From Candidatus Infernicultor aquiphilus (GTDB lineage: Bacteria; Atribacterota; Phoenicimicrobiia; Phoenicimicrobiales; Phoenicimicrobiaceae): 42,882 nucleotides of DNA. Of the stretch, positions 7,261 through 42,696 are shown in pieces. How positions within the stretch are numbered: position 1 is the stretch's first letter; the number at the start of each line of letters is the position of its first letter. The translations under genes and the position numbers were made by a program. The notes under the pieces were generated by a model. That model made no database searches. It was not told where the DNA came from and worked only from the letters and a program-made list of their open reading frames with translations. The stretch spans positions 1 to 42,882 of the forward strand of contig MNYY01000051.1 of assembly GCA_001873345.1 (NCBI GenBank). The letters are read 5' to 3'.

Positions 7261-7698
7261 ATGCCAGAGGAAGAAATAATTGTCGCTATCGACCCTGGTA
7301 CCAAAAAGTGTGGCTATGCAGTAGTGGATTCTAATTTAAATGTTTTACAAAGAGAAGTTACTTTAGCAGAGAGAATAATAAATAGGATTAAAAATAGTTT
7401 TAAAGTTTACAATATAGAGGGGATTATTTTAGGAAAGGGCACTAATTATAAACAGATAGAAAATAAATTAAAAAACTATTTTCCTCGATTAAAAATTATC
7501 TTAATTGAGGAAAATTTCAGTACTTTAGAGGCAAGAAAAAAATATTTTGAAGCCTATCCACCTCGAGGTATTTCTAGACTTATCCCTCTATCCTTAAGAG
7601 TACCCCCTTGCCAATATGATGATTTTGTAGCAGTACTATTAGCAGAAAAGTATTTTAAAAATAAAAATAGTAGGGGCAGACCTTGTGTCTGCCCGTAA
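7261..7698 (+). CDS. YqgF/RuvX-like (RNase H-fold) putative nuclease; last 9 codons and stop supplied by a REP
   Basis: 145-aa ORF with AAGGAG upstream. The motifs IVAIDPGTKKCGYAVVD, IEENFSTLEAR and DDFVAVLLAEKYF resemble the YqgF family pattern. The C-terminal SRGRPCVCP-stop is encoded by REP copy 7670-7695. Confidence 0.45.
   Translation: MPEEEIIVAIDPGTKKCGYAVVDSNLNVLQREVTLAERIINRIKNSFKVYNIEGIILGKGTNYKQIENKLKNYFPRLKIILIEENFSTLEARKKYFEAYPPRGISRLIPLSLRVPPCQYDDFVAVLLAEKYFKNKNSRGRPCVCP
7670..7695 (+). repeat. REP element (GTAGGGGCAGACCTTGTGTCTGCCCG), forward orientation
   Basis: 8-bp stem GGGCAGAC/GTCTGCCC with a 5-nt loop and a 5' GTAG. The same 26-mer recurs at 12163, 12513, 22508 and 35577. 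Confidence 0.9.
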
Positions 7699-7736: not shown

Positions 7737-7771
7737 GCGATATGCGATATGCGATATGCGATATGCGATAC
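7737..7771 (+). repeat. Module M2: heptamer tandem repeat (GCGATAT)x4 + GCGATAC
   Basis: Five contiguous 7-bp units ending 7 nt (ATG 7778) or 22 nt (TTG 7793) before the candidate hypB starts. Confidence 0.95.
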
Positions 7772-7777
7772 GAATAA

Positions 7778-8452
7778 ATGGAGGTAAATACATTGACCAA
7801 AGTAAGGGTTTTTACTAATATTTTGAAGGCAAATGAAAATATTGCTCAAAAAAATAGAGAAATTTTTAATAAGAATAAGGTATATACGATTAATTTAATG
7901 AGTTCACCTGGGTCTGGAAAGACCAGCCTATTAGAAAGGACTATAGATTCACTAAAGAATGAATTAAGGATTGCAGTTATAGAGGGCGATCTTCAAACTA
8001 CTAAAGATGCGGAGAGAATAGAAAAATATAATATCCCGGTGACTCAAATAAATACCGATGGAGCTTGTCATTTAGATGCTAATATGGTAGCTAGTGTATT
8101 AGATTCCTATAATTTTAAGGAAATAGATCTTTTTGTTATTGAAAATGTGGGCAATTTAGTCTGTCCAGCAGGATATGATTTAGGAGAAGAGGATAGAGTA
8201 GTGATGGTAAGTATTCCTGAAGGAGACGATAAACCAATAAAATACCCCTTGATATTCCATAATGCAAATGTATTAATAATAAATAAGATTGATCTATTAC
8301 CTTATACTAATTTTAATAGGTTAAAAGTTAAAGAAGATGCCTTAAATATAAATCCCAATTTAAAAATATTCGAAATTTCTTGTCAGACTGGGGAAGGCTT
8401 AGAAAATTGGTTTATCTGGTTAAAAGAGCAGGTAAGTAAAAAGAAGAGGTGA
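7778..8452 (+). CDS. hypB: Hydrogenase nickel incorporation GTPase HypB
   Basis: 224-aa ORF with P-loop SSPGSGKTSLL, ENVGNLVCPA and NKIDLL. GGAGG at 7780-7784 overlaps the ATG at 7778. The true start may therefore be the in-frame TTG at 7793. Confidence 0.9.
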   Translation: MEVNTLTKVRVFTNILKANENIAQKNREIFNKNKVYTINLMSSPGSGKTSLLERTIDSLKNELRIAVIEGDLQTTKDAERIEKYNIPVTQINTDGACHLDANMVASVLDSYNFKEIDLFVIENVGNLVCPAGYDLGEEDRVVMVSIPEGDDKPIKYPLIFHNANVLIINKIDLLPYTNFNRLKVKEDALNINPNLKIFEISCQTGEGLENWFIWLKEQVSKKKR

Positions 8453-10722
8453 AAATTAGAGAGAATATCATAATCAAAGGTATAGTTCAGGGGGTTGGGT
8501 TTCGCCCCTTTATTAAAAAATTAGTAAAACCTTTCCATCTATACGGGTGGGTGCTTAATTCTAACCAGGGTGTAGAGATTGAGGCAGAAGGAGAAGAAAA
8601 AGAATTAGATAAATTGGTCCAGGACATTTACGAGAAACTTCCCCCTTTAGCTCGTATCGAAAAGATGGAAATTACCAAATTGCCACTTTTAGGTTATAAA
8701 GGATTTTCCATTAAGAAGAGTATAGTTAAAGAAGAAGATAGTTTTGTCTTAGTTTCCCCGGATATTAGTATCTGTGAAGATTGTCTACAAGAATTATTTG
8801 ATCCTCATAATCGACGTTTTCGTTATCCTTTTATAAATTGTACTAATTGTGGCCCCCGTTTTACCATTATAAAAGATATACCCTATGACCGTGAAAAGAC
8901 TACTATGGGCGTTTTTAAGATGTGTCCTCAATGTCAGAATGAGTATGATAATCTGGAAGATAGAAGATGCCATGCTCAACCTAATGCATGTGCTGAGTGT
9001 GGTCCAAAAGTATTTCTTTACCGCAATAAAAGAAAATTAAAAAATATCGATCCTATAAAAGAAGCAATTAGATTATTAAAGAAGGGAAAAATTGGTGCAA
9101 TTAAGGGATTAGGAGGTTTTCATTTAGCCTGCGATGCTACTAACCATAGAGCAGTATCTAAATTACGTCTTTTAAAAAATAGGGAGGCCAAACCTTTTGC
9201 TCTAATGTCTCTCAATTTAGAAAAGATTAAACAATTTTGTGAAGTTAAACCGGAAGAAGAAGCATTGCTGATCAATCGAACTCGGCCCATTGTTCTTTTA
9301 AAAAAGAAGAAGGATAATTTAATTTCGCCAATGGTGGCACCAAACAACAATTATTTGGGAGTGATGTTACCCTATACCCCCCTTCATTATCTTTTATTAA
9401 AAGAAGAAATATTAGCTTTAGTTATGACCAGTGGTAACCTTGGAGATCAACCAATAATTAGTGATAATCAGAAAGCTTTAGAAAAATTAAACCAAATAGC
9501 TGATTTTTATCTTCTATATAATCGAGATATCTTTAACCGTTGTGATGATTCTGTAGTAAAAATTATAAATAATGATAAAGTGTTTTTTCGAAGGTCAAGA
9601 GGATATGTTCCTGACCCTATTATCCTTAACTTCCCATTAAAAGAAGTATTAGCTTTAGGTGGGGAACTAAAAAATACCATTAGTTTTTCTAGAGAAAATT
9701 ATGTTTTTTTAAGTCAGTATTTGGGTGATTTAAAAAATGTAGATACTTTAAATTTTTTTAAAGAAGCTATAGTGAATTTGCAGAAAATATTTAGAGCCAA
9801 CCCTGAAATTATTGCTTGTGATCTCCACCCTGATTATCTATCTACTCAATATGCAGAAGAAATAAGAGCTAAAAAGGGAGTAAAAATAGTCAAAGTTCAG
9901 CATCATCAGGCTCATATAGTAAGTTGTATGGCCGAAAATAATATTACAGAAACAGTGATTGGGGTAGCCTATGATGGTACAGGTTACGGAGATGACGATA
10001 ATGTTTGGGGAGGAGAATTTTTAATCTGCGATTTAAAAAGATATTCCCGAGTAGGTCATTTAAAGTATTTTTCCTTACCTGGGGGAGATAAAGCTATTTT
10101 AGAACCCTGGAGGATAGCTTATAGTTATTTATATTCTATTTATGGCTCAAAAGCCAAGAAAATTAAAATAGATTTTAATCGTAGGATAGAGAACAAAAAA
10201 TTATTGATCATCGAAAAGATGATAGATCAAAAAATAAATTCTCCTCTTACTTCAAGTTGTGGACGTCTTTTTGATGCTATATCTTCCTTATTAGGAATAA
10301 GAGATGAGGTAAGTTACGAGGGACAAGCGGCTATGGAATTAGAATCACTTTGTACGGTCAGAATTAAGGAGAGATATAAATTTAGTATTTATAAAGAAGG
10401 GGAGAAATTTATTATTGATCCTCAAGAAATTTTTATAAATGTAGTTAATGATCTTAAAAAGGGGATAGATAAAAGAGTAATAGCGGTTAAATTTCATAAT
10501 ACTGTTGCAGAATTTACAGTTGATTTATGTGGTAGAATAAGAAAAAAATCCAGTATTAATAAAGTTGCTTTAAGCGGAGGAGTATTTCAAAATCGTTATT
10601 TAACCGAGAAAATCATTTCTCTATTAAAAAAAGATGATTTTCAGGTGTATATTCAGAGAAAAGTTCCTCCCAATGACGGAGGAATATCTTTAGGACAAGC
10701 AGTAGTAGCGGGGAGTGAATAG
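8449..10722 (+). CDS. hypF: Carbamoyltransferase HypF
   Basis: 757-aa ORF. The GTG start overlaps the hypB stop (GTGA). Domains in order: acylphosphatase-like N-terminus (GIVQGVGFRPF), two CxxC zinc-finger pairs, a YrdC-like segment (GLGGFHLACDA) and a Kae1-like C-terminus. Confidence 0.95.
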   Translation: MKIRENIIIKGIVQGVGFRPFIKKLVKPFHLYGWVLNSNQGVEIEAEGEEKELDKLVQDIYEKLPPLARIEKMEITKLPLLGYKGFSIKKSIVKEEDSFVLVSPDISICEDCLQELFDPHNRRFRYPFINCTNCGPRFTIIKDIPYDREKTTMGVFKMCPQCQNEYDNLEDRRCHAQPNACAECGPKVFLYRNKRKLKNIDPIKEAIRLLKKGKIGAIKGLGGFHLACDATNHRAVSKLRLLKNREAKPFALMSLNLEKIKQFCEVKPEEEALLINRTRPIVLLKKKKDNLISPMVAPNNNYLGVMLPYTPLHYLLLKEEILALVMTSGNLGDQPIISDNQKALEKLNQIADFYLLYNRDIFNRCDDSVVKIINNDKVFFRRSRGYVPDPIILNFPLKEVLALGGELKNTISFSRENYVFLSQYLGDLKNVDTLNFFKEAIVNLQKIFRANPEIIACDLHPDYLSTQYAEEIRAKKGVKIVKVQHHQAHIVSCMAENNITETVIGVAYDGTGYGDDDNVWGGEFLICDLKRYSRVGHLKYFSLPGGDKAILEPWRIAYSYLYSIYGSKAKKIKIDFNRRIENKKLLIIEKMIDQKINSPLTSSCGRLFDAISSLLGIRDEVSYEGQAAMELESLCTVRIKERYKFSIYKEGEKFIIDPQEIFINVVNDLKKGIDKRVIAVKFHNTVAEFTVDLCGRIRKKSSINKVALSGGVFQNRYLTEKIISLLKKDDFQVYIQRKVPPNDGGISLGQAVVAGSE

Positions 10723-10865: not shown

Positions 10866-10878
10866 AGAGGTGAAGAAA

Positions 10879-11094
10879 ATGTGTTTAGCGATACCGGGAA
10901 GAGTTAAGAAAATATTTAATGATCATACCGCCGAAATAGAAATTGGGGGAATTATCAAAAGAGCAAGTTTAGATCTAATTCCCAAAGTTGAAGTGGGAGA
11001 GTATGTACTTTTGCATGCTGGTTTTGCTATTGAAGTAATCAATCAAATAGAGGCTTTAAAAATATTTGAGGCTTGGGAGGGTAAAATAGATTGA
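10879..11094 (+). CDS. hypC: Hydrogenase maturation chaperone HypC
   Basis: I start it at ATG 10879, giving the canonical MCLAIPG N-terminus (essential Cys2), with AGAGGTGA 6 nt upstream. The track's GTG at 10870 adds MKK. Confidence 0.9.
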   Translation: MCLAIPGRVKKIFNDHTAEIEIGGIIKRASLDLIPKVEVGEYVLLHAGFAIEVINQIEALKIFEAWEGKID

Positions 11095-12191
11095 AATATA
11101 TTGATGAGTATAGGGATAAAAGAATAGCTCAAAACATCTTACAAAAAATTAATATTATTTCCAAAAAAAAGGTAAATTTAATGGAAGTTTGTGGAACCCA
11201 CACGGTAGCTATATTCAGAAATGATATCAAAAAAATATTACCTACCAATATTAATCTTATTTCTGGGCCGGGTTGCCCAGTATGTGTTACTCCCGTTTCC
11301 CATATTGATGAGATAATTAGTTTATCCCGAAAAGAAGATTTTATTATAACTACTTTTGGAGATATGATCAGGATTCCAGGTTCTACTTCTACTTTAGAGA
11401 AAGAAAAAACTAATAGTGCAGACATTAGAATTGTTTATTCTACTTTAGATGCTTTAAAAATTGCCCAAAATAATCCTTCCCAAGAGGTTATTTTTATGGG
11501 GGTGGGTTTTGAGACAACTTCTCCTACTATAGCCAGTGCAATATTAAAAGCCCAAGAAGGTAAAATTAATAATTTTTCTGTTTTGAGTGTAGCCAAGATT
11601 ATGCCTCCAGTAATGAAAGCTTTATTAGAAAGTAAAGAGGTAAATATTGATGGGTTTATTTGCCCCGGACATGTAAGTGCCATTATTGGGAGTCAACCTT
11701 TTAATTTTATTGCTGCTCAGTATGGAGTTCCTTGTGTCATCTGCGGATTTGAACCATTAGATATTTTAGAAGGTATTTATATGCTTATTAATCAAATTGA
11801 AAATGATAAAGCAGAAGTGGAAATTCAATATAAACGCGTAGTTAAACCAGAAGGGAATAGGATTGCCCTAGAGAGAATTAATGAGGTATTTAAAGTGGTT
11901 GATTCTAATTGGAGAGGGATAGGCAATATCCACCATAGTGGTTTAGAGATAAAAGATAAATATAATCAGCATAATGCCAGAAGATTTAAAGTGGAAATAG
12001 AAGAAACTAAAGAACCAAGAGGATGTCGTTGTGGCGAAGTCTTAAGGGGAATAATTATTCCTCCTGAATGTCCTCTCTTTGGAGAGATTTGTACCCCTGA
12101 AGACCCCCAAGGTGCTTGTATGGTTTCCAGTGAAGGCACCTGTGCCGCCTATTATAAATACAGTAGGGGCAGACCTTGTGTCTGCCCGTAA
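11091..12191 (+). CDS. hypD: Hydrogenase maturation Fe-S protein HypD; last 9 codons and stop supplied by a REP
   Basis: 366-aa ORF. The TTG start overlaps the hypC stop (TTGA). MKYIDEYRD, CGTHT, GPGCPVCV and the C-terminal CxxxP region match HypD. The C-terminal SRGRPCVCP-stop is REP-encoded, identical to the tail of ORF 7261-7698. Confidence 0.9.
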   Translation: MKYIDEYRDKRIAQNILQKINIISKKKVNLMEVCGTHTVAIFRNDIKKILPTNINLISGPGCPVCVTPVSHIDEIISLSRKEDFIITTFGDMIRIPGSTSTLEKEKTNSADIRIVYSTLDALKIAQNNPSQEVIFMGVGFETTSPTIASAILKAQEGKINNFSVLSVAKIMPPVMKALLESKEVNIDGFICPGHVSAIIGSQPFNFIAAQYGVPCVICGFEPLDILEGIYMLINQIENDKAEVEIQYKRVVKPEGNRIALERINEVFKVVDSNWRGIGNIHHSGLEIKDKYNQHNARRFKVEIEETKEPRGCRCGEVLRGIIIPPECPLFGEICTPEDPQGACMVSSEGTCAAYYKYSRGRPCVCP

Positions 12192-12240
12192 TAAGGCAGA
12201 CCTTGTGTCTGCCCGTAAAAAGGTAGATCCTGTATCTACC
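12163..12240 (+). repeat. Three tandem REP-type hairpins (full REP, 5'-truncated REP, diverged variant)
   Basis: 12163-12188 is GTAGGGGCAGACCTTGTGTCTGCCCG. 12195-12215 is GGCAGACCTTGTGTCTGCCCG. 12222-12240 is GGTAGATCCTGTATCTACC, with two compensatory C:G to T:A stem changes. Confidence 0.9.
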
Positions 12241-12257
12241 TTTAACAGGTTTAGGAG

Positions 12258-12875
12258 ATGTTGTCCATGAACATTAAAAATAAGAAGTGTAATCGTCAGT
12301 CTATTCGTCTTCATGGATACAATTATTCCTATCCTGGAGCATATTTTATAACCATATGTACCCCAGAACAGAAAATGTTGTTAAAATTTAAATATGTGCA
12401 GGTAATGATTCATTCTGTTTGGAATAGTTTACCCGATAGATTTCCTTCTGTAAAATTAGATGAATTTGTAATAATGCCAAATCACGTGCATGCAATTTTG
12501 TGTATAAATATAGTAGGGGCAGACCTTGTGTCTGCCCGTAATAAGGCAGACCTTTTGTCTGCCCCACCGCTTAGTCGTATTATTCAAGCATTTAAATCAA
12601 TTACAACTTATAAATATATTTTAGGGGTGAAAATAAATAATTGGCCAATGTTCAATAAACGCCTATGGCAACGGAATTATTATGACCATATAATACGTAG
12701 CGAGGAATCGTTGAATTGCATTAGAGAATATATTATTAATAATCCAACTCGATGGGAATTTGATAAGGAAAATCCTCGGGGTAAAATAGATAAAAAAGAG
12801 GAAGATTTTTGGAAGGAAATACACTCTCAACCTAAAATTAGGGCAGACATAAAGTCTGCCCCTACAAGGCGTTAA
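12258..12875 (+). CDS. REP-associated tyrosine transposase (RAYT, IS200/IS605 Y1 HUH family)
   Basis: 205-aa ORF. A start at ATG 12267 is more likely, 9 nt after AGGAG. SIRLHGYNYSYPGAYFITICT, the HUH motif MPNHVHAIL (HVH at 12483-12491) and LWQRNYYDHIIRSEESL...YIINNP are family hallmarks. REP DNA lies inside the ORF and at its 3' end. Confidence 0.8.
   Translation: MLSMNIKNKKCNRQSIRLHGYNYSYPGAYFITICTPEQKMLLKFKYVQVMIHSVWNSLPDRFPSVKLDEFVIMPNHVHAILCINIVGADLVSARNKADLLSAPPLSRIIQAFKSITTYKYILGVKINNWPMFNKRLWQRNYYDHIIRSEESLNCIREYIINNPTRWEFDKENPRGKIDKKEEDFWKEIHSQPKIRADIKSAPTRR
12513..12565 (+). repeat. REP doublet inside the RAYT coding sequence
   Basis: 12503-12564 matches 12153-12214 at 60 of 62 positions. 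Here it is read in another frame, as VGADLVSARNKADLLSAP. Confidence 0.9.
12841..12865 (-). repeat. REP, inverted orientation, forming the RAYT 3' end
   Basis: GGGCAGACATAAAGTCTGCCCCTAC. The stem is identical to the REP stem but the loop differs. It encodes RADIKSAPT. Confidence 0.85.
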
Positions 12876-12924
12876 TAGCAAAAATCCAAGGAAATAAAAT
12901 TAACGAATGGAAGGGAAAAAAATA

Positions 12925-13935
12925 ATGAAGGAAGATAAAATATTGCTAAGTCATGGTAGCGGAGGTAAATTATCTTATAAGCTAATCAAGGAATTATTTT
13001 TAGCTAATTTTAATAATAATTATTTGAAAAAACTTGATGATGGTGCGATATTAAATATAGATGGATTAAATTTGGCTTATACTACTGATTCTTATACCGT
13101 GGACCCTTTGTTTTTTAAAGGAGGGAATATTGGAGAGTTAGCAGTTTATGGTACAGTTAATGATTTAGCAATGTGTGGAGCAACCCCTTTATATTTAAGT
13201 TGTTCTTTTATTATTGAAGAGGGGATGCCTTTAAGTTTATTAGAGAAGATTGTCTTCAGTATGAAAAAAGCCTCAGCGATTGCCAGAGTAGATATTGTAA
13301 CTGGAGATACTAAAGTAGTGAATAAAGGAGCGGCAGATAAAATATTTATTAATACTTCAGGTTTGGGAGTAGTGGAAGATGGAGTAAATGTTTCTGGAAG
13401 TAATGCTCAATTAGGAGATATAATTATCATAAATGGTCCTATAGGCAATCACGGGATTGCGGTTTTATCAGAAAGGGAAGGCTTAAAATTTGAAACAGAG
13501 ATCCAAAGTGATACTGCTCCACTTTCTTCTTTAGTCGCAGATATATTAAAAGTTAGTAAAGATATTCATGTCCTAAGAGATCCTACTCGGGGAGGTTTGG
13601 CTACTACTTTAAAGGAGATAGCTCTATCTTCAAAAGTAGATCTAGAAATAAATGAAGAAGATATCTATATTCAGGAAGAGGTAAGAGCAGCATGTGAAAT
13701 ATTAGGTTACGACCCCTTATACCTGGCCAATGAAGGAAAATTGGTAGCCTTTGTTCCATTAGAGATGGTTTCTGATATCTTAATAAAGATGAGAAAAAAT
13801 AAATATGGTAAAGAATCAAAAGTTATTGGGAAAGTATTAAAAAGTTCAGAAGGAAAAGTTTATCTTAATACTATCATTGGTGGAAAAAGAATAGTCGATA
13901 TGCTAACTGGTGAACAATTGCCCAGGATATGTTAG
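12925..13935 (+). CDS. hypE: Hydrogenase maturation carbamoyl dehydratase HypE
   Basis: AIR-synthase-like fold motifs (SHGSGG, DDGA, GTVNDLAMCGA) and the invariant C-terminal PRIC. ATG 12925 is preferred because GGAAGGGA lies upstream. The track start at 12907 is also possible. Confidence 0.9.
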   Translation: MKEDKILLSHGSGGKLSYKLIKELFLANFNNNYLKKLDDGAILNIDGLNLAYTTDSYTVDPLFFKGGNIGELAVYGTVNDLAMCGATPLYLSCSFIIEEGMPLSLLEKIVFSMKKASAIARVDIVTGDTKVVNKGAADKIFINTSGLGVVEDGVNVSGSNAQLGDIIIINGPIGNHGIAVLSEREGLKFETEIQSDTAPLSSLVADILKVSKDIHVLRDPTRGGLATTLKEIALSSKVDLEINEEDIYIQEEVRAACEILGYDPLYLANEGKLVAFVPLEMVSDILIKMRKNKYGKESKVIGKVLKSSEGKVYLNTIIGGKRIVDMLTGEQLPRIC

Positions 13936-14889: not shown

Positions 14890-14961
14890 GTAGGGGCTCG
14901 ATTCATCGAGCCCGCTTGGGAAGTTACCAAACAATGCGGGTCGAATAAATTCGACCCCTAC
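14890..14961. repeat. GC-rich hairpin pair H2 + H3 bracketed by GTAG...CTAC
   Basis: GTAGGGGCTCGATTCATCGAGCCCGC ... GGGTCGAATAAATTCGACCCCTAC. Paralogues are at 32027-32083 and 36274-36330. H2 alone occurs at 30667-30692. Confidence 0.9.
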
Positions 14962-14984: not shown

Positions 14985-15031
14985 CTAACGACTAATAGAC
15001 AGGCGAGACGCCTGTCCTACTAACGACTAAT
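14985..15031 (+). repeat. Hairpin H4 (GACAGGCG-AGA-CGCCTGTC) flanked by an 11-bp direct repeat TAACGACTAAT (module M4)
   Basis: CTAACGACTAAT-AGACAGGCGAGACGCCTGTCCTAC-TAACGACTAAT. H4 recurs at 30757-30781 and, inverted, at 42626-42650. Confidence 0.9.
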
Positions 15032-19703: not shown

Positions 19704-19749
19704 AATTGGAGAATTGGAGAATTGGTCAATTGGTCAATTGGTCAATTGG
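19704..19749 (+). repeat. Module M1 octamer array: (AATTGGAG)x2 (AATTGGTC)x3 AATTGG
   Basis: Perfect 8-bp phasing. It ends 11 nt before ATG 19761. Confidence 0.95.
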
Positions 19750-19760
19750 AATATAATAAA

Positions 19761-22507: not shown

Positions 22508-22578
22508 GTAGGGGCAGACCTTGTGTCTGCCCGTAATGCGTAATTAGTCCTACGGGCAGACACAAGGTCTGTCCCTAC
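22508..22578. repeat. REPIN: two REPs in inverted orientation
   Basis: GTAGGGGCAGACCTTGTGTCTGCCCG (22508-22533), a 19-nt spacer, then CGGGCAGACACAAGGTCTGTCCCTAC (22553-22578, one mismatch). The flanks are shared with the REPIN at 35577-35690. Confidence 0.9.
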
Positions 22579-22623
22579 GACTATTCACTATTCACTAATG
22601 ACTATTTAACATGGAGTTAAAAA

Positions 22624-26470: not shown

Positions 26471-26641
26471 TCAGCCAGTTATCCGGTTTGCCGGTAAGTT
26501 TTGTAATGTGTAATATGTGACAAGTAACCTGTGATAAGTACCTGTTTTTATAATTTGGGAAATTTATCTTATTACTCATTACATATTACTTGTTACTGTA
26601 TTTTAGCGAGATACGATTCACGAGATACGAGATACGAAATT
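26471..26641. repeat. Composite spacer: M12, M3 reverse, M3 forward, M2 forward
   Basis: Modules in order: TCAGCCAGTTATCCGGTTTGCCGGTAAG (26471-26498), TGTAATGTGTAATATGTGACAAGTAACCTGTGATAAGTACCTG (26502-26544), CTTATTACTCATTACATATTACTTGTTACTGTATTTT (26568-26604) and AGCGAGATACGATTCACGAGATACGAGATACGAAATT (26605-26641). Confidence 0.9.
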
Positions 26642-30497: not shown

Positions 30498-30523
30498 GTG
30501 GGCACGATGCATCGTGCCCCTAC
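30498..30523. repeat. Hairpin H5: perfect 20-nt palindrome GGGCACGATGCATCGTGCCC with a 3' CTAC
   Basis: GTGGGCACGATGCATCGTGCCCCTAC. This is the only copy in the window. Confidence 0.85.
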
Positions 30524-30666: not shown

Positions 30667-30692
30667 GTAGGGGCTTGATTTATCAAGCCCGG
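30667..30692 (+). repeat. Hairpin H2 (GTAGGGGCTTGATTTATCAAGCCCGG)
   Basis: 9-bp stem GGGCTTGAT/ATCAAGCCC. The same hairpin occurs at 32027 and 36274. Confidence 0.9.
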
Positions 30693-30710: not shown

Positions 30711-30781
30711 ATTGCCACGCTCTGATAAATCAGAGCTCGCAATGACTGACGACTAATAGACAGGCGAGACGCCTGTCCTAC
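30711..30781 (+). repeat. Hairpin module M9 (ATTGCCACGC..GCTCGCAAT) + M4 + hairpin H4
   Basis: ATTGCCACGCTCTGATAAATCAGAGCTCGCAATGAC TGACGACTAAT AGACAGGCGAGACGCCTGTCCTAC. The inverted copy is at 42626-42696. Confidence 0.9.
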
Positions 30782-30790
30782 GAATTTTTT

Positions 30791-30944
30791 GGTAAATTGG
30801 TAAATTGGAGAATCGGTAAATTGGTAAATTGGAGAATCGGTAAATTGGTCAATTGGAGAATCGGTAAATTGGTCAATTGGAGAATCGGTAAATTGGTCAA
30901 TTGGAGAATTGGTAAATTGGTTAATTGGTTAATTGATAAATCGG
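30791..30944 (+). repeat. Module M1: five tandem 24-bp units (three octamers each, GGTAAATT-GGTMAATT-GGAGAATC) plus a degenerate tail
   Basis: Units lie at 30791, 30815, 30839, 30863 and 30887, and the tail is 30911-30944. The array overlaps the GGAGG SD (30943-30947) of pfkA. Confidence 0.95.
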
Positions 30945-31926: not shown

Positions 31927-31974
31927 TTCGTATCTCGTAGATAAGACAGAAGACAGAAGTCAGAAGTCAGAATA
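31927..31974 (-). repeat. Module M2 reverse (31927-31939) followed by M5 heptamers (31947-31974)
   Basis: TTCGTATCTCGTA, then CAGAAGA CAGAAGT CAGAAGT CAGAATA. Confidence 0.9.
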
Positions 31975-32026: not shown

Positions 32027-32083
32027 GTAGGGGCTTGATTTATCAAGCCCGCAATACTCGGGTCGGATAAATCCGCCCCCTAC
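32027..32083. repeat. Hairpin pair H2 + H3 bracketed by GTAG...CTAC
   Basis: GTAGGGGCTTGATTTATCAAGCCCGCAATACTCGGGTCGGATAAATCCGCCCCCTAC. It is preceded by M6 (AGAGCAGTTAGCGTTTGGG, 32006-32024). Confidence 0.9.
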
Positions 32084-35552: not shown

Positions 35553-35576
35553 AAGAAAATAATAATGTACAATATG

Positions 35577-35690
35577 TAGGGGCAGACCTTGTGTCTGCCC
35601 GAAATGAGTACATTCAAAACAATAGTTTATACAAAAAAATTTTTAATTATGGTTTTTAGTCCTACGGGCAGACACAAGGTCTGCCCCTAC
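35577..35690. repeat. REPIN: inverted REP pair with a 63-nt A/T-rich spacer
   Basis: GTAGGGGCAGACCTTGTGTCTGCCCG-type REP at 35577-35601 and CGGGCAGACACAAGGTCTGCCCCTAC at 35665-35690. The conserved flanks AATAATAATGTAYAATAY and TAGTCCTAC...GAYTATT are shared with the REPIN at 22508-22578. Confidence 0.9.
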
Positions 35691-36244: not shown

Positions 36245-36392
36245 ATATGGCGGGTAGAGTTTAGCGTGTAGAGGTAGGGGCTTGATTTATCAAGCCCGCA
36301 GAACTCGGGTCGGATAAATCCGACCCCTACATCAAAAACAATACTTTATTGACTTAGCCTATACGCTAAACGCTGTACGCTATACGCTAACC
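36245..36392. repeat. Nested palindrome: M6 forward, hairpin pair H2+H3 (36274-36330), M6 reverse
   Basis: ATATGGCGGGTAGAGTTTAGCGTGTAGAG, then GTAGGGGCTTGATTTATCAAGCCCGCAGAACTCGGGTCGGATAAATCCGACCCCTAC, then TACGCTAAACGCTGTACGCTATACGCTAACC. Confidence 0.9.
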
Positions 36393-36408: not shown

Positions 36409-36476
36409 AATTGGCAAATTGGCAAATTGGTAAATTGGCAAATTGGTGCATTAGTGCATTGGTAAATTGGAGAATT
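36409..36476 (+). repeat. Module M1 octamer array, forward (8.5 units)
   Basis: AATTGGCA AATTGGCA AATTGGTA AATTGGCA AATTGGTG CATTAGTG CATTGGTA AATTGGAG AATT. The last GGAG serves as the SD for ATG 36482. Confidence 0.95.
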
Positions 36477-36481
36477 ATTAC

Positions 36482-42496: not shown

Positions 42497-42616
42497 AATT
42501 GACCAATTCGCCAATTCTCCGATTAACCAATTAGTCAATTCACCAATTGACCAATTAATCAATTTACCAATTGACCAATTAATCAATTTACCAATTGACC
42601 AATTCACCAATTAACC
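42497..42616 (-). repeat. Module M1 octamer array, reverse complement: 15 phased octamers (AATTNNCC)
   Basis: It starts 6 nt after the bamA stop. The internal 24-bp period (AATTTACC AATTGACC AATTAATC) mirrors the pfkA-upstream array. Confidence 0.95.
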
Positions 42617-42625
42617 AAAAAATTC

Positions 42626-42696
42626 GTAGGACAGGTGTCTCGCCTGTCTATTAGTCGTTAGTCATTGCGAGCTTTGATTTATCGAAGCGTGGCAAT
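42626..42696 (-). repeat. Inverted copy of H4 + M4 + M9 composite
   Basis: GTAGGACAGGTGTCTCGCCTGTCTA TTAGTCGTTA GTCATTGCGAGCTTTGATTTATCGAAGCGTGGCAAT. It is the reverse complement of 30711-30781 with a few substitutions. Confidence 0.9.

Follow-up and report, generated by a model that had tools for sequence, protein, structure and literature searches.

The window, i.e., the whole stretch of 42,882 nucleotides that was analysed, carries one RAYT (TnpA-REP) gene in its 42.9 kb, located between hypD and hypE and flanked by inverted REPs, with dispersed REPs at 7.7, 22.5 and 35.6 kb (Table 1). The true start of the gene is likely ATG 12267, giving a protein of 202 aa, because this codon stands 9 nt after AGGAG (12253-12257) and because the N-termini of relatives (P0001 and the orthologues: MNIKNKK/METKNKK) favour it. 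The HUH motif is formed by H76/H78 (12483-12491) within N75-H-V-H78 and is followed by W137-Q138 and by Y158-I-I-N-N-P163, with a distance of 82 aa from H76 to Y158. Across an alignment of 37 homologues N75, H76 and H78 are invariant, and so are WQ and YIINNP. It is noted that the catalytic Tyr is Y158 and not a Tyr of WQRNYY, as given by the alignment to 4ER8 and by the Y-motif table in PMC6006769. The Pfam Y1_Tnp profile scores 29.5 bits against a cut-off of 23, with the native match covering the C-terminal half (profile 65-121), and the NCBIfam profile NF047646 (REP_Tyr_transpos) scores 63.3 bits (E 2.2e-17), below its curated equivalog cut-off of 80 bits; the protein is a relative, not an equivalog, of the NF047646 members, which are of the proteobacterial type. 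The sole solved relative found by sequence is the E. coli TnpA-REP structure 4ER8 (profile match E 3.7e-06), and a Foldseek search with the AlphaFold model returns IS608, ISDra2 and 4ER8 at E about 1e-7. With dN/dS of 0.18-0.24 against six orthologues (dS 0.14-1.33), the gene is, as judged from sequence, intact and functional by evolutionary criteria, its enzyme core being under purifying selection.

Table 1. Features of the hypD-RAYT-hypE region and of the REP family in the window.
Feature	Position	Strand	Description
dispersed single REP	7670..7697	+	encodes the tail ...SRGRPCVCP-stop of ORF 7261-7698
hypD	11091..12191	+	Pfam HypD 2e-153, residues 12-357 of 366
upstream REP array, REPtron left arm	12163..12243	+	three tandem 27-nt units: GTAG-tagged unit 1; GTAA-started unit 2; degenerate unit 3 (GGTAGATcctgtATCTACC)
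RAYT / TnpA-REP gene	12258..12875	+	205 aa from first ATG
internal REP unit 1	12513..12539	+	GTAGGGGCAGACcttgtGTCTGCCCGTAA, read V86-G-A-D-L-V-S-A-R94
internal REP unit 2	12540..12569	+	TAAGGCAGACcttttGTCTGCCCCACC, read N95-K-A-D-L-L-S-A-P-P104
downstream inverted REP, REPtron right arm	12841..12865	-	RAYT ORF reads through, R195-A-D-I-K-S-A-P-T203
hypE (AIRS/AIRS_C)	12907..13935	+	conserved neighbour downstream of RAYT
inverted REP pair (REPIN), intergenic	22508..22578	.	copies at 22508/22555
inverted REP pair (REPIN), intergenic	35576..35690	.	copies at 35576/35663

Among the TnpA-Y1 subclasses defined by Quentin, Siguier, Chandler and Fichant (BMC Genomics 2018, PMC6006769), in-frame REP insertions between HuH and Y are the unique feature of subclass 2.4, which is the RAYT group 4 of Bertels et al. 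2017 (PMC6006769). According to the same authors, subclass 2.4 is characterized by the motifs NH[IFV]H, WQ and YIxNNP, a median length of 194 aa and a median HuH-Y distance of 88 aa, with canonical GT[AG]G-tagged REPs having three G-C pairs at the stem base within +/-1000 nt, while the Y motif is YIH[QN]NP in subclass 2.6 and YI[LR][NQ]NP in subclass 2.7 (PMC6006769). We assign the RAYT of the window to subclass 2.4 by these motifs and features rather than by the authors' MCL clustering or HMM profiles. For RAYTs at large (Nunvar 2010; Ton-Hoang 2012), the traits are a Y1 HUH transposase fold with its catalytic Tyr and a vertically inherited gene, present once, whose inverted flanking REPs are also dispersed in the genome.

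The repeated DNA is a REP, i.e., a GTAG-tagged hairpin, GTAGGGGCAGACcttgtGTCTGCCC, the stem of which (GGGCAGAC/GTCTGCCC) starts GGG/CCC and has therefore three G-C pairs at its base. The core hairpin GGCAGACnnnnnGTCTGCC is present in 10 copies in the window, where 0.02 would be expected; the copies away from the hypD-RAYT region, reported as intergenic, are at 7675, 22513/22555 and 35581/35667, and REPs identical to internal unit 1 start at 7670, 12163, 22508 and 35576. By the tandem-repeat measure the upstream array has a period of 27, 2.2 copies and 93% matches, and as single-stranded DNA it folds into three hairpins (-25.6 kcal/mol, z = -8.5). For the doublet in the RAYT loop the fold consists of two hairpins (-18 kcal/mol, z = -5.8) or, alternatively, of a single long REPIN-like hairpin on the minus strand (-17.5). 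On the minus strand internal unit 2 is a GTGG-tagged hairpin (12545-12567), and therefore the loop has the common layout "+ then -".

The original prediction was that the RAYT protein is partly encoded by its own REPs, through a direct duplicate of the hypD 3' end. The match underlying it was reproduced by the repeat search, with 12153-12214 and 12503-12564 forming a 62-nt direct repeat of 97% identity (60/62) at an offset of 350, and the translations bear out that the two copies are read in different frames: hypD has the C-terminal end ...AAYYKYSRGRPCVCP-stop, while the RAYT ORF (12258-12875) reads the repeat one frame over, as ...NHVHAILCINIVGADLVSARNKADLLSAPPLSRIIQAFKS.... The segment does lie between the HUH motif and the catalytic Tyr, and the C-terminus of the RAYT ORF, ...KIRADIKSAPTRR-stop, which ends RADIKSAPTRR-stop, is indeed encoded by an inverted REP, since 12841-12865 is 92% complementary to both 12163-12187 and 12513-12537. 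The RAYT is then partly REP-encoded as predicted: the loop contains two units, and a third, inverted, encodes the C-terminus. The claim that the segment is a direct duplicate of the hypD 3' end did not survive, as discussed below together with the orthologues.

Five orthologous contigs (L081, L082, L083 and L085 among them), each set of genes coming from an independent metagenome, share the order hypC-hypD-RAYT-hypE, and all have a plus REP array after hypD, of 1-4 units in the orthologues, and a minus REP downstream, with REP units in the RAYT loop except for L085, where only remnants without a hairpin are present. In the orthologues HypD has 358 aa and ends YYKYN-stop, with the REP straight after the stop and the TAG stop adjoining it, ...AAATATAACTAGTAGGGG. 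In the window and in the closest relative L087 a 4-nt deletion eliminates this TAG stop, and therefore hypD runs 9 codons into the REP and ends at the TAA of the REP, so that its last 9 residues, SRGRPCVCP, and its stop come from the first REP unit. The same REP-derived tail, SRGRPCVCP-stop, ends two unrelated genes of the window, hypD and ORF 7261-7698. At the other end of the locus, the orthologous RAYTs of 187 and 196 aa end ...EINS-stop, the minus REP lying about 35 nt downstream of the gene, and they have no REP-encoded tail.

In the RAYT the REP doublet encodes residues 86-104, in the loop between beta3 (the HUH strand) and alphaC. The AlphaFold model, which is only moderate overall (mean pLDDT 72), has a strand at 76-83, no secondary structure at 84-104 and a helix at 105-127; residues 85-99 have pLDDT <50, while the adjoining 10-residue blocks average >90. 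The REP-encoded C-terminal tail, residues 194-205, is likewise predicted to be disordered (pLDDT <50). When residues 86-104, the first three residues and the tail after S190 are removed in silico, the Y1_Tnp profile matches over 9-121 with 36.1 bits. From the loop in the model and from the restored full match it follows that the REP segment is a surface-loop insertion that disrupts no structural element. Of the two outcomes that the original prediction had considered for the segment, an insertion relative to the family or a conserved loop, the model thus points to an insertion in a variable, disordered loop, and the disruption of a conserved structural element, taken beforehand as the sign of a pseudogene, is not seen, the family model treating the peptide as an insertion.

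Two readings of the locus differ from an insertion into an intact gene. According to one, a segmental duplication copied the hypD 3' end into the RAYT gene, or the reverse, and it draws its support from the extension of the 60/62 match, over 62 nt, to the 10 nt 5' of GTAG, TATAAATAcA versus TATAAATAtA. However, REP arrays are already present at both positions in orthologues at dS 0.47-0.60, where the 5' flanks differ, being TATTACAAATATAACTA|GTAGGGG on the hypD side and TGTATAAATATA|GTAGGGG on the RAYT side, i.e., ...TACAAATATAACTA|GTAG after hypD as compared with ...TGTATAAATATA|GTAG in the RAYT gene. Each flank is coding sequence of the gene that contains it, with codons for conserved residues, YYKY(N) for HypD and C-I-N-I for the HUH strand; the hypD flank of the window was produced by the 4-nt deletion that took out the TAG stop, and the same REP occurs at four further sites in the window. 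Because the 10-nt flanks are codons of each host gene and differ in the orthologues, their match is a coincidence of AT-rich codons, and the match as a whole is far above chance because both sites belong to a repeat family. The 60/62 identity is then the homogeneity of the REP family plus a chance match of the flank, and a duplication, to which we give only the slightest probability, is already refuted by the comparison of the orthologous sequences. We also considered TATAAATAYA 5' of GTAG as an insertion target or as part of a longer element, and dropped it, as the hypD flanks of the orthologues differ and the other copies in the window have only generically AT-rich flanks. According to the other reading, the RAYT is a pseudogene broken by the REP insertion, for which it could be argued that the native protein matches only the C-terminal half of the Pfam domain and that its NCBIfam REP_Tyr_transpos score is under the cut-off. 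This is very improbable and was dropped: the insertion falls in a disordered loop, dN/dS is about 0.2 across six orthologues and the domain match spans the full length without the insert; moreover, the frame is open, every catalytic motif is present and the changes in unit number are invariably multiples of 27 nt.

The dynamics of the insertion can be seen among the orthologues. Between L081 and L082 the compared flanks are identical while the loop differs by exactly one 27-nt unit, and the orthologues have 1, 2 or 3 loop units, corresponding to 187, 196 and 205 aa; slippage preserves the frame because 27 nt are 9 codons. The stem variants GGCAGAC..GTCTGCC and GGCAGAT..ATCTGCC have opposite external and internal placements in L081 as compared with L083 and L087, a swap which, from the sequences, may be due either to gene conversion between the copies or to recurrent double (compensatory) changes. 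Internal unit 1 shows 0-2 nt differences among orthologues at dS 0.47-0.60, where synonymous sites are 35-41% different. Its evolution thus follows that of the REP family rather than that of a free linker; this conservation, which exceeds the expectation for a passive linker, fits homogenisation, and it would also fit selection for function. At the 5' junction of its loop, L087 differs exactly at GTAG, having WLGFSSNFL in place of CINI. In L085 (dS 1.33, same hyp context) the flanking REPs are perfect, while the loop, of similar length, has no hairpin but the remnants ..NK.. and ..PT[VI]S; therefore the internal hairpin can decay while the gene and the REP family persist. The 20-kb loci fit recurrent insertion and one ancient insertion with concerted evolution alike.

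The feature is not limited to this lineage. At E<=1e-3 the protein database contains 4397 relatives of the RAYT, the closest of them being named Atribacteria. When 37 relatives are aligned, nearly all read VGA[...]...[...]APT in the loop that follows HUH, in agreement with the earlier statement that RAYT-like ORFs of other lineages often have VGA...P / ...SAPT strings at this position; the residues between the tags vary by lineage (ADLVSAR, APLVGAH, AGLVPAL, ADLCVRP, AHLRVRP). Of the best 120 of the 4397 relatives, 114 were parsable, and the plus-tag peptide (VGA/xRG) is present in 100/114 and the minus-tag peptide in 94/114, these protein statistics being inflated as the query itself holds the REP peptide. 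At the DNA level, we sampled 80 genomic loci from many phyla, with flanks of at most 20 kb, 56 of them having a recognisable gene. Counting 16-mers in the loop against a control outside the ORF was noisy, because the flanks were <=20 kb, the controls hit REPs at the ORF ends and two mismatches gave chance matches; it was replaced by an explicit finder of GT[AG]G-tagged hairpins combined with a permutation of own-locus versus cross-locus matches. A GT[AG]G-tagged loop hairpin (stem >=7) is found in 40/56 loci, and an intact one is lacking in the other 16/56. The loop hairpin matches a hairpin outside the gene at its own locus (<=1 mismatch in 18 nt) in 20/37 cases, as compared with 4.7% between different loci, and among 5000 permutations the highest number of matches was 9 (p<=2e-4); the expectation that the loop matches the resident REP of each genome is thus borne out. 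Clear cases are L006, L007, L011, L014, L065 and L069, each of which has its two loop hairpins, plus and minus, again directly outside the ORF. The commonest loop layout, in 26/58 loops, is "+ then -". In the short loops of L035, L050 and L061 no REP was found, and at L071 flanking REPs are present while none was found in the loop. The taxa of the sampled loci agree with the distribution of group 4 described by Bertels et al. 2017, who found it in 17 classes but rarely among Proteobacteria.

How the loop DNA is read is informative about the level at which it is constrained. The plus tag is read in the three frames with counts of 32/9/0, as VGA in 32 loops and xRG in 9 and never in the TAG-containing frame, while the minus tag uses all three frames (19/11/2, as APT, SPL and RPY), and the loop length is 19-74 aa across the 56 loci. 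Because the minus tag is read in three frames, the plus tag only in those free of TAG, and the length varies so widely, the sequences support the view that the constraint on the loop acts on DNA and not on protein. The opposite possibility, that the peptide VGA...APT has been selected as protein, e.g., as a DNA- or partner-binding motif, with the likeness to REPs being secondary, has in its favour that many homologues contain the VGA and APT strings, but it is next to impossible in our judgement and was dropped, since the reading frame of the same DNA differs between lineages (VGA or xRG for the plus tag; APT, SPL or RPY for the minus tag). Against it are also the variation in loop length, the predicted disorder of the segment, the shift of the between-tag residues such that the DNA stays palindromic (ADLVSA, APLVGA, AGLVPA, ADLCVRP) and the presence of the REP-derived SRGRPCVCP tail on two unrelated genes.

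A more serious alternative is that the internal REP or REPIN in subclass 2.4 is kept by selection as a cis-element and is not merely tolerated, where it could be a self-target in single-stranded DNA, an mRNA hairpin tuning translation or stability, or a protected seed (master copy) linking substrate and enzyme. As a hairpin on single-stranded DNA or mRNA that the RAYT itself recognises it could curb the enzyme, and as a master copy it could ensure that a matching substrate is always present. We consider such a role, in any of these forms, unlikely, although several observations speak for it: the internal REPs are prevalent and match the locus's own REPs, the stems are preserved through double changes at orthologous positions, internal unit 1 is more conserved than the gene's synonymous sites, the fold of the hairpins is a stable one (-18 kcal/mol, z = -5.8), and there is a precedent in IS200, where hairpins affect the translation of the transposase mRNA (discussed by Di Nocera et al., PMC3733652). 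By contrast, the orthologue L085 has, in the same hyp context and with perfect flanking REPs, a loop without the hairpin, 16/56 loci have no intact tagged loop hairpin, including L035, L050 and L061 with their short loops, and L071 is flanked by REPs and has none in the loop; therefore, a regulatory or self-targeting role, if any, would be dispensable. Moreover, all these observations are explained equally if a permissive loop repeatedly received REPs by insertion or gene conversion. The hairpins may act in cis on the mRNA or on single-stranded DNA, but the data do not require such an effect. Should the internal REP prove to be regulatory, no cis-control element of a domesticated RAYT would have been known before it.

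It is thus very probable that 12513-12569 is an in-frame tandem doublet of the genome's GTAG-tagged REP in the beta3-alphaC loop of an intact, vertically inherited RAYT of subclass 2.4, and the following mechanism can be proposed. Homology with E. coli TnpA-REP (PMC3479197; PMC8266576), at 19% identity, suggests that the RAYT is an HUH/Y1 endonuclease which would recognise GTAG together with the hairpin and would bind and cut REPs as single-stranded DNA, at GTAG or near it. The enzyme would work mainly around its own gene, by which the REPtron would be built. Copies entering the gene itself would survive solely in the permissive loop, and solely in the frames that avoid the TAG of GTAG. The internal copies would subsequently undergo concerted evolution with the other REPs of the family, by slippage, re-insertion or gene conversion, with the loop peptide itself being presumably a passenger.

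The phenomenon itself is already known, from a short descriptive passage of Quentin et al. 2018, and the window is a further example, from a host lineage that is new for it; among the papers compared, only this one mentions REPs within RAYT genes, which are absent from Nunvar 2010, Bertels 2017, Di Nocera 2013 and Corneloup 2021. The RAYT of the window is like subclass 2.4 in having the NH[IFV]H, WQ and YIxNNP motifs, a length near the 194-aa median, a variable beta3-alphaC insertion with an enlarged HuH-Y distance and in-frame REPs between HuH and Y, flanking REPs that bear a GT[AG]G tag and have three basal G-C pairs, and relatives scattered over many phyla. It differs in that its host is an Atribacteria-like lineage, that its loop contains two REP units in direct tandem, at a period of 27 nt, instead of a clean inverted pair or a "double-foot" REP, that its ORF also runs through the 3' flanking REP, that the gene is stably within the hypCD-hypE cluster, and that its clade is without the 8-residue beta1-alphaA stretch found in most homologues.

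The comparison can be extended to more distant systems. E. coli TnpA-REP, or RayT (YafM), the 4ER8 protein of subclass 2.2, shares with the RAYT the HUH/Y1 fold (Foldseek E 3.7e-07, rmsd 3.8 A, 147 columns), the Y---NP motif, the WQ region and the REPtron layout with REPs flanking the gene, whereas the identity is 19%, its motifs are DHLH and YIHYNP, its beta3-alphaC loop is short and without a REP, and its REPs have longer, bulged stems. The IS200/IS605 TnpA proteins (IS608, ISDra2) have the same catalytic fold, being the top Foldseek matches, and recognise subterminal hairpins on single strands; by contrast, these elements are mobile and multi-copy, their hairpins are at the element ends outside the ORF and the Tyr motif is Y---Q, not Y---NP. 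The Rickettsia RPEs and the intragenic GTAG/CGTC REPs (Di Nocera et al. 2013, PMC3733652) are also short palindromic repeats that leave the frame unbroken, often adding 9-30 residues, and they are found at gene ends too, as compared with SRGRPCVCP-stop here; the difference is that in the window the host gene is the cognate transposase and that the same loop is used subfamily-wide.

In view of the precedent of Quentin et al. 2018, the importance of the present case as a discovery is low. What is added is a well-resolved example from an uncultured, Atribacteria-like host in which the orthologues show directly the gain and loss of 27-nt units, the exchange of the two stem variants among internal and external REPs and the decay of the internal copy in one lineage, together with the statistic over many phyla that the loop hairpins match the REPs of their own genome. 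Finally, we note two consequences for annotation: REP-encoded peptides (VGA...APT, SRGRPCVCP-stop) inflate the similarity scores among unrelated proteins, and REP-encoded inserts break the matches to domain models, the Pfam match here being of half length until the insert is removed.

The RAYT gene (REP-associated tyrosine transposase) is housed in a hydrogenase-maturation cluster comprising hypF, hypC, hypD and hypE, and relatives whose protein identity is as low as 56% keep it at this position. All plausible gene-sized ORFs of the window lie on the + strand, with the minus-strand ORFs of at least 100 aa across the whole window being few and each nested within a longer + strand ORF.

A second ORF also carries a C-terminal tail that, together with its stop codon, is borne by a REP (a GTAG-tagged hairpin repeat), matching the end of hypD. 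This ORF is RuvX/YqgF-like, by synteny with the gene at 4402-4812 in L081, an orthologous hyp-RAYT contig; the L081 orthologue has 136 aa, with a REPIN (inverted REP pair) lying downstream and no fusion to it.

Features and their coordinates (window, + strand or strand not given, unless stated)
Feature	Coordinates	Strand	Remark
hypF	8449-10722	+	hydrogenase maturation
hypC	10870-11094	+	hydrogenase maturation
ORF with REP-encoded tail	7261-7698 (tail 7670-7698)	+	ends ...KNKNSRGRPCVCP*
8-nt-unit tandem arrays	19704-19750, 30789-30941, 36409-36477, 42497-42618		intergenic
7-nt tandem arrays	7737-7770, 22580-22606, 26568-26637, 31943-31972, 36359-36389		
GTAG-tagged hairpins, first site group	14890-14913, 30667-30690, 32027-32050, 36274-36297; 30500-30523	last one −	
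GTAG-tagged hairpins, second site group	14998-15020, 30759-30781, 42626-42648	first two −	
Half-REP arrays in RAYT genes	L014 4872-5090, L008 3227-3397, L075 3002-3202, L066 10509-10607		other lineages

The closest relative for which DNA is available (92% identity) is at 473-1096 of L087, another orthologous contig. There WLGFSSNFL replaces the residues CINI immediately 5' of the internal GTAG, with the remaining gene being collinear, which places a rearrangement junction in L087 exactly at the REP tag. In the RAYT genes of other lineages, in-frame tandem arrays of half-REP units are present inside the loop after the HUH motif or, in L066, at the C-terminus instead; examples are GQPREINN (3-4 copies), GQARDAGK (3), QPLGEQ (6) and an array of the 18-nt GTAGGGGCGATTCGCATT. 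These arrays suggest an origin by aberrant cleavage and ligation, or by slippage, at the REP arms.

The window also contains at least two additional families of GTAG-tagged hairpins, GTAGGGGCTTGAtttaTCAAGCCC with its variants and GTAGGACAGGCGtctCGCCTGTC. Since one RAYT gene and no second was found in the window, the cognate enzyme of these families, if any, would be encoded elsewhere. Between the genes, one 8-nt unit (written AATTGGTA, AATTGGAC or AATTGACC) forms tandem arrays that reach at most 19 copies, with a super-period of 24 nt, and are frequently near REPs. Short 7-nt arrays also occur (e.g., GCGATAT, 4.9 copies, and ACTATTC, 3.9 copies), several of which, intergenic, immediately adjoin a REP or REPIN.

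In our alignment of RAYT homologues (A1), the Atribacteria-clade proteins lack an 8-residue stretch between beta1 and alphaA (columns 71-78; at about residues 42-43 of the window RAYT) that is present in most other homologues, with a consensus like GDIVDGEM.
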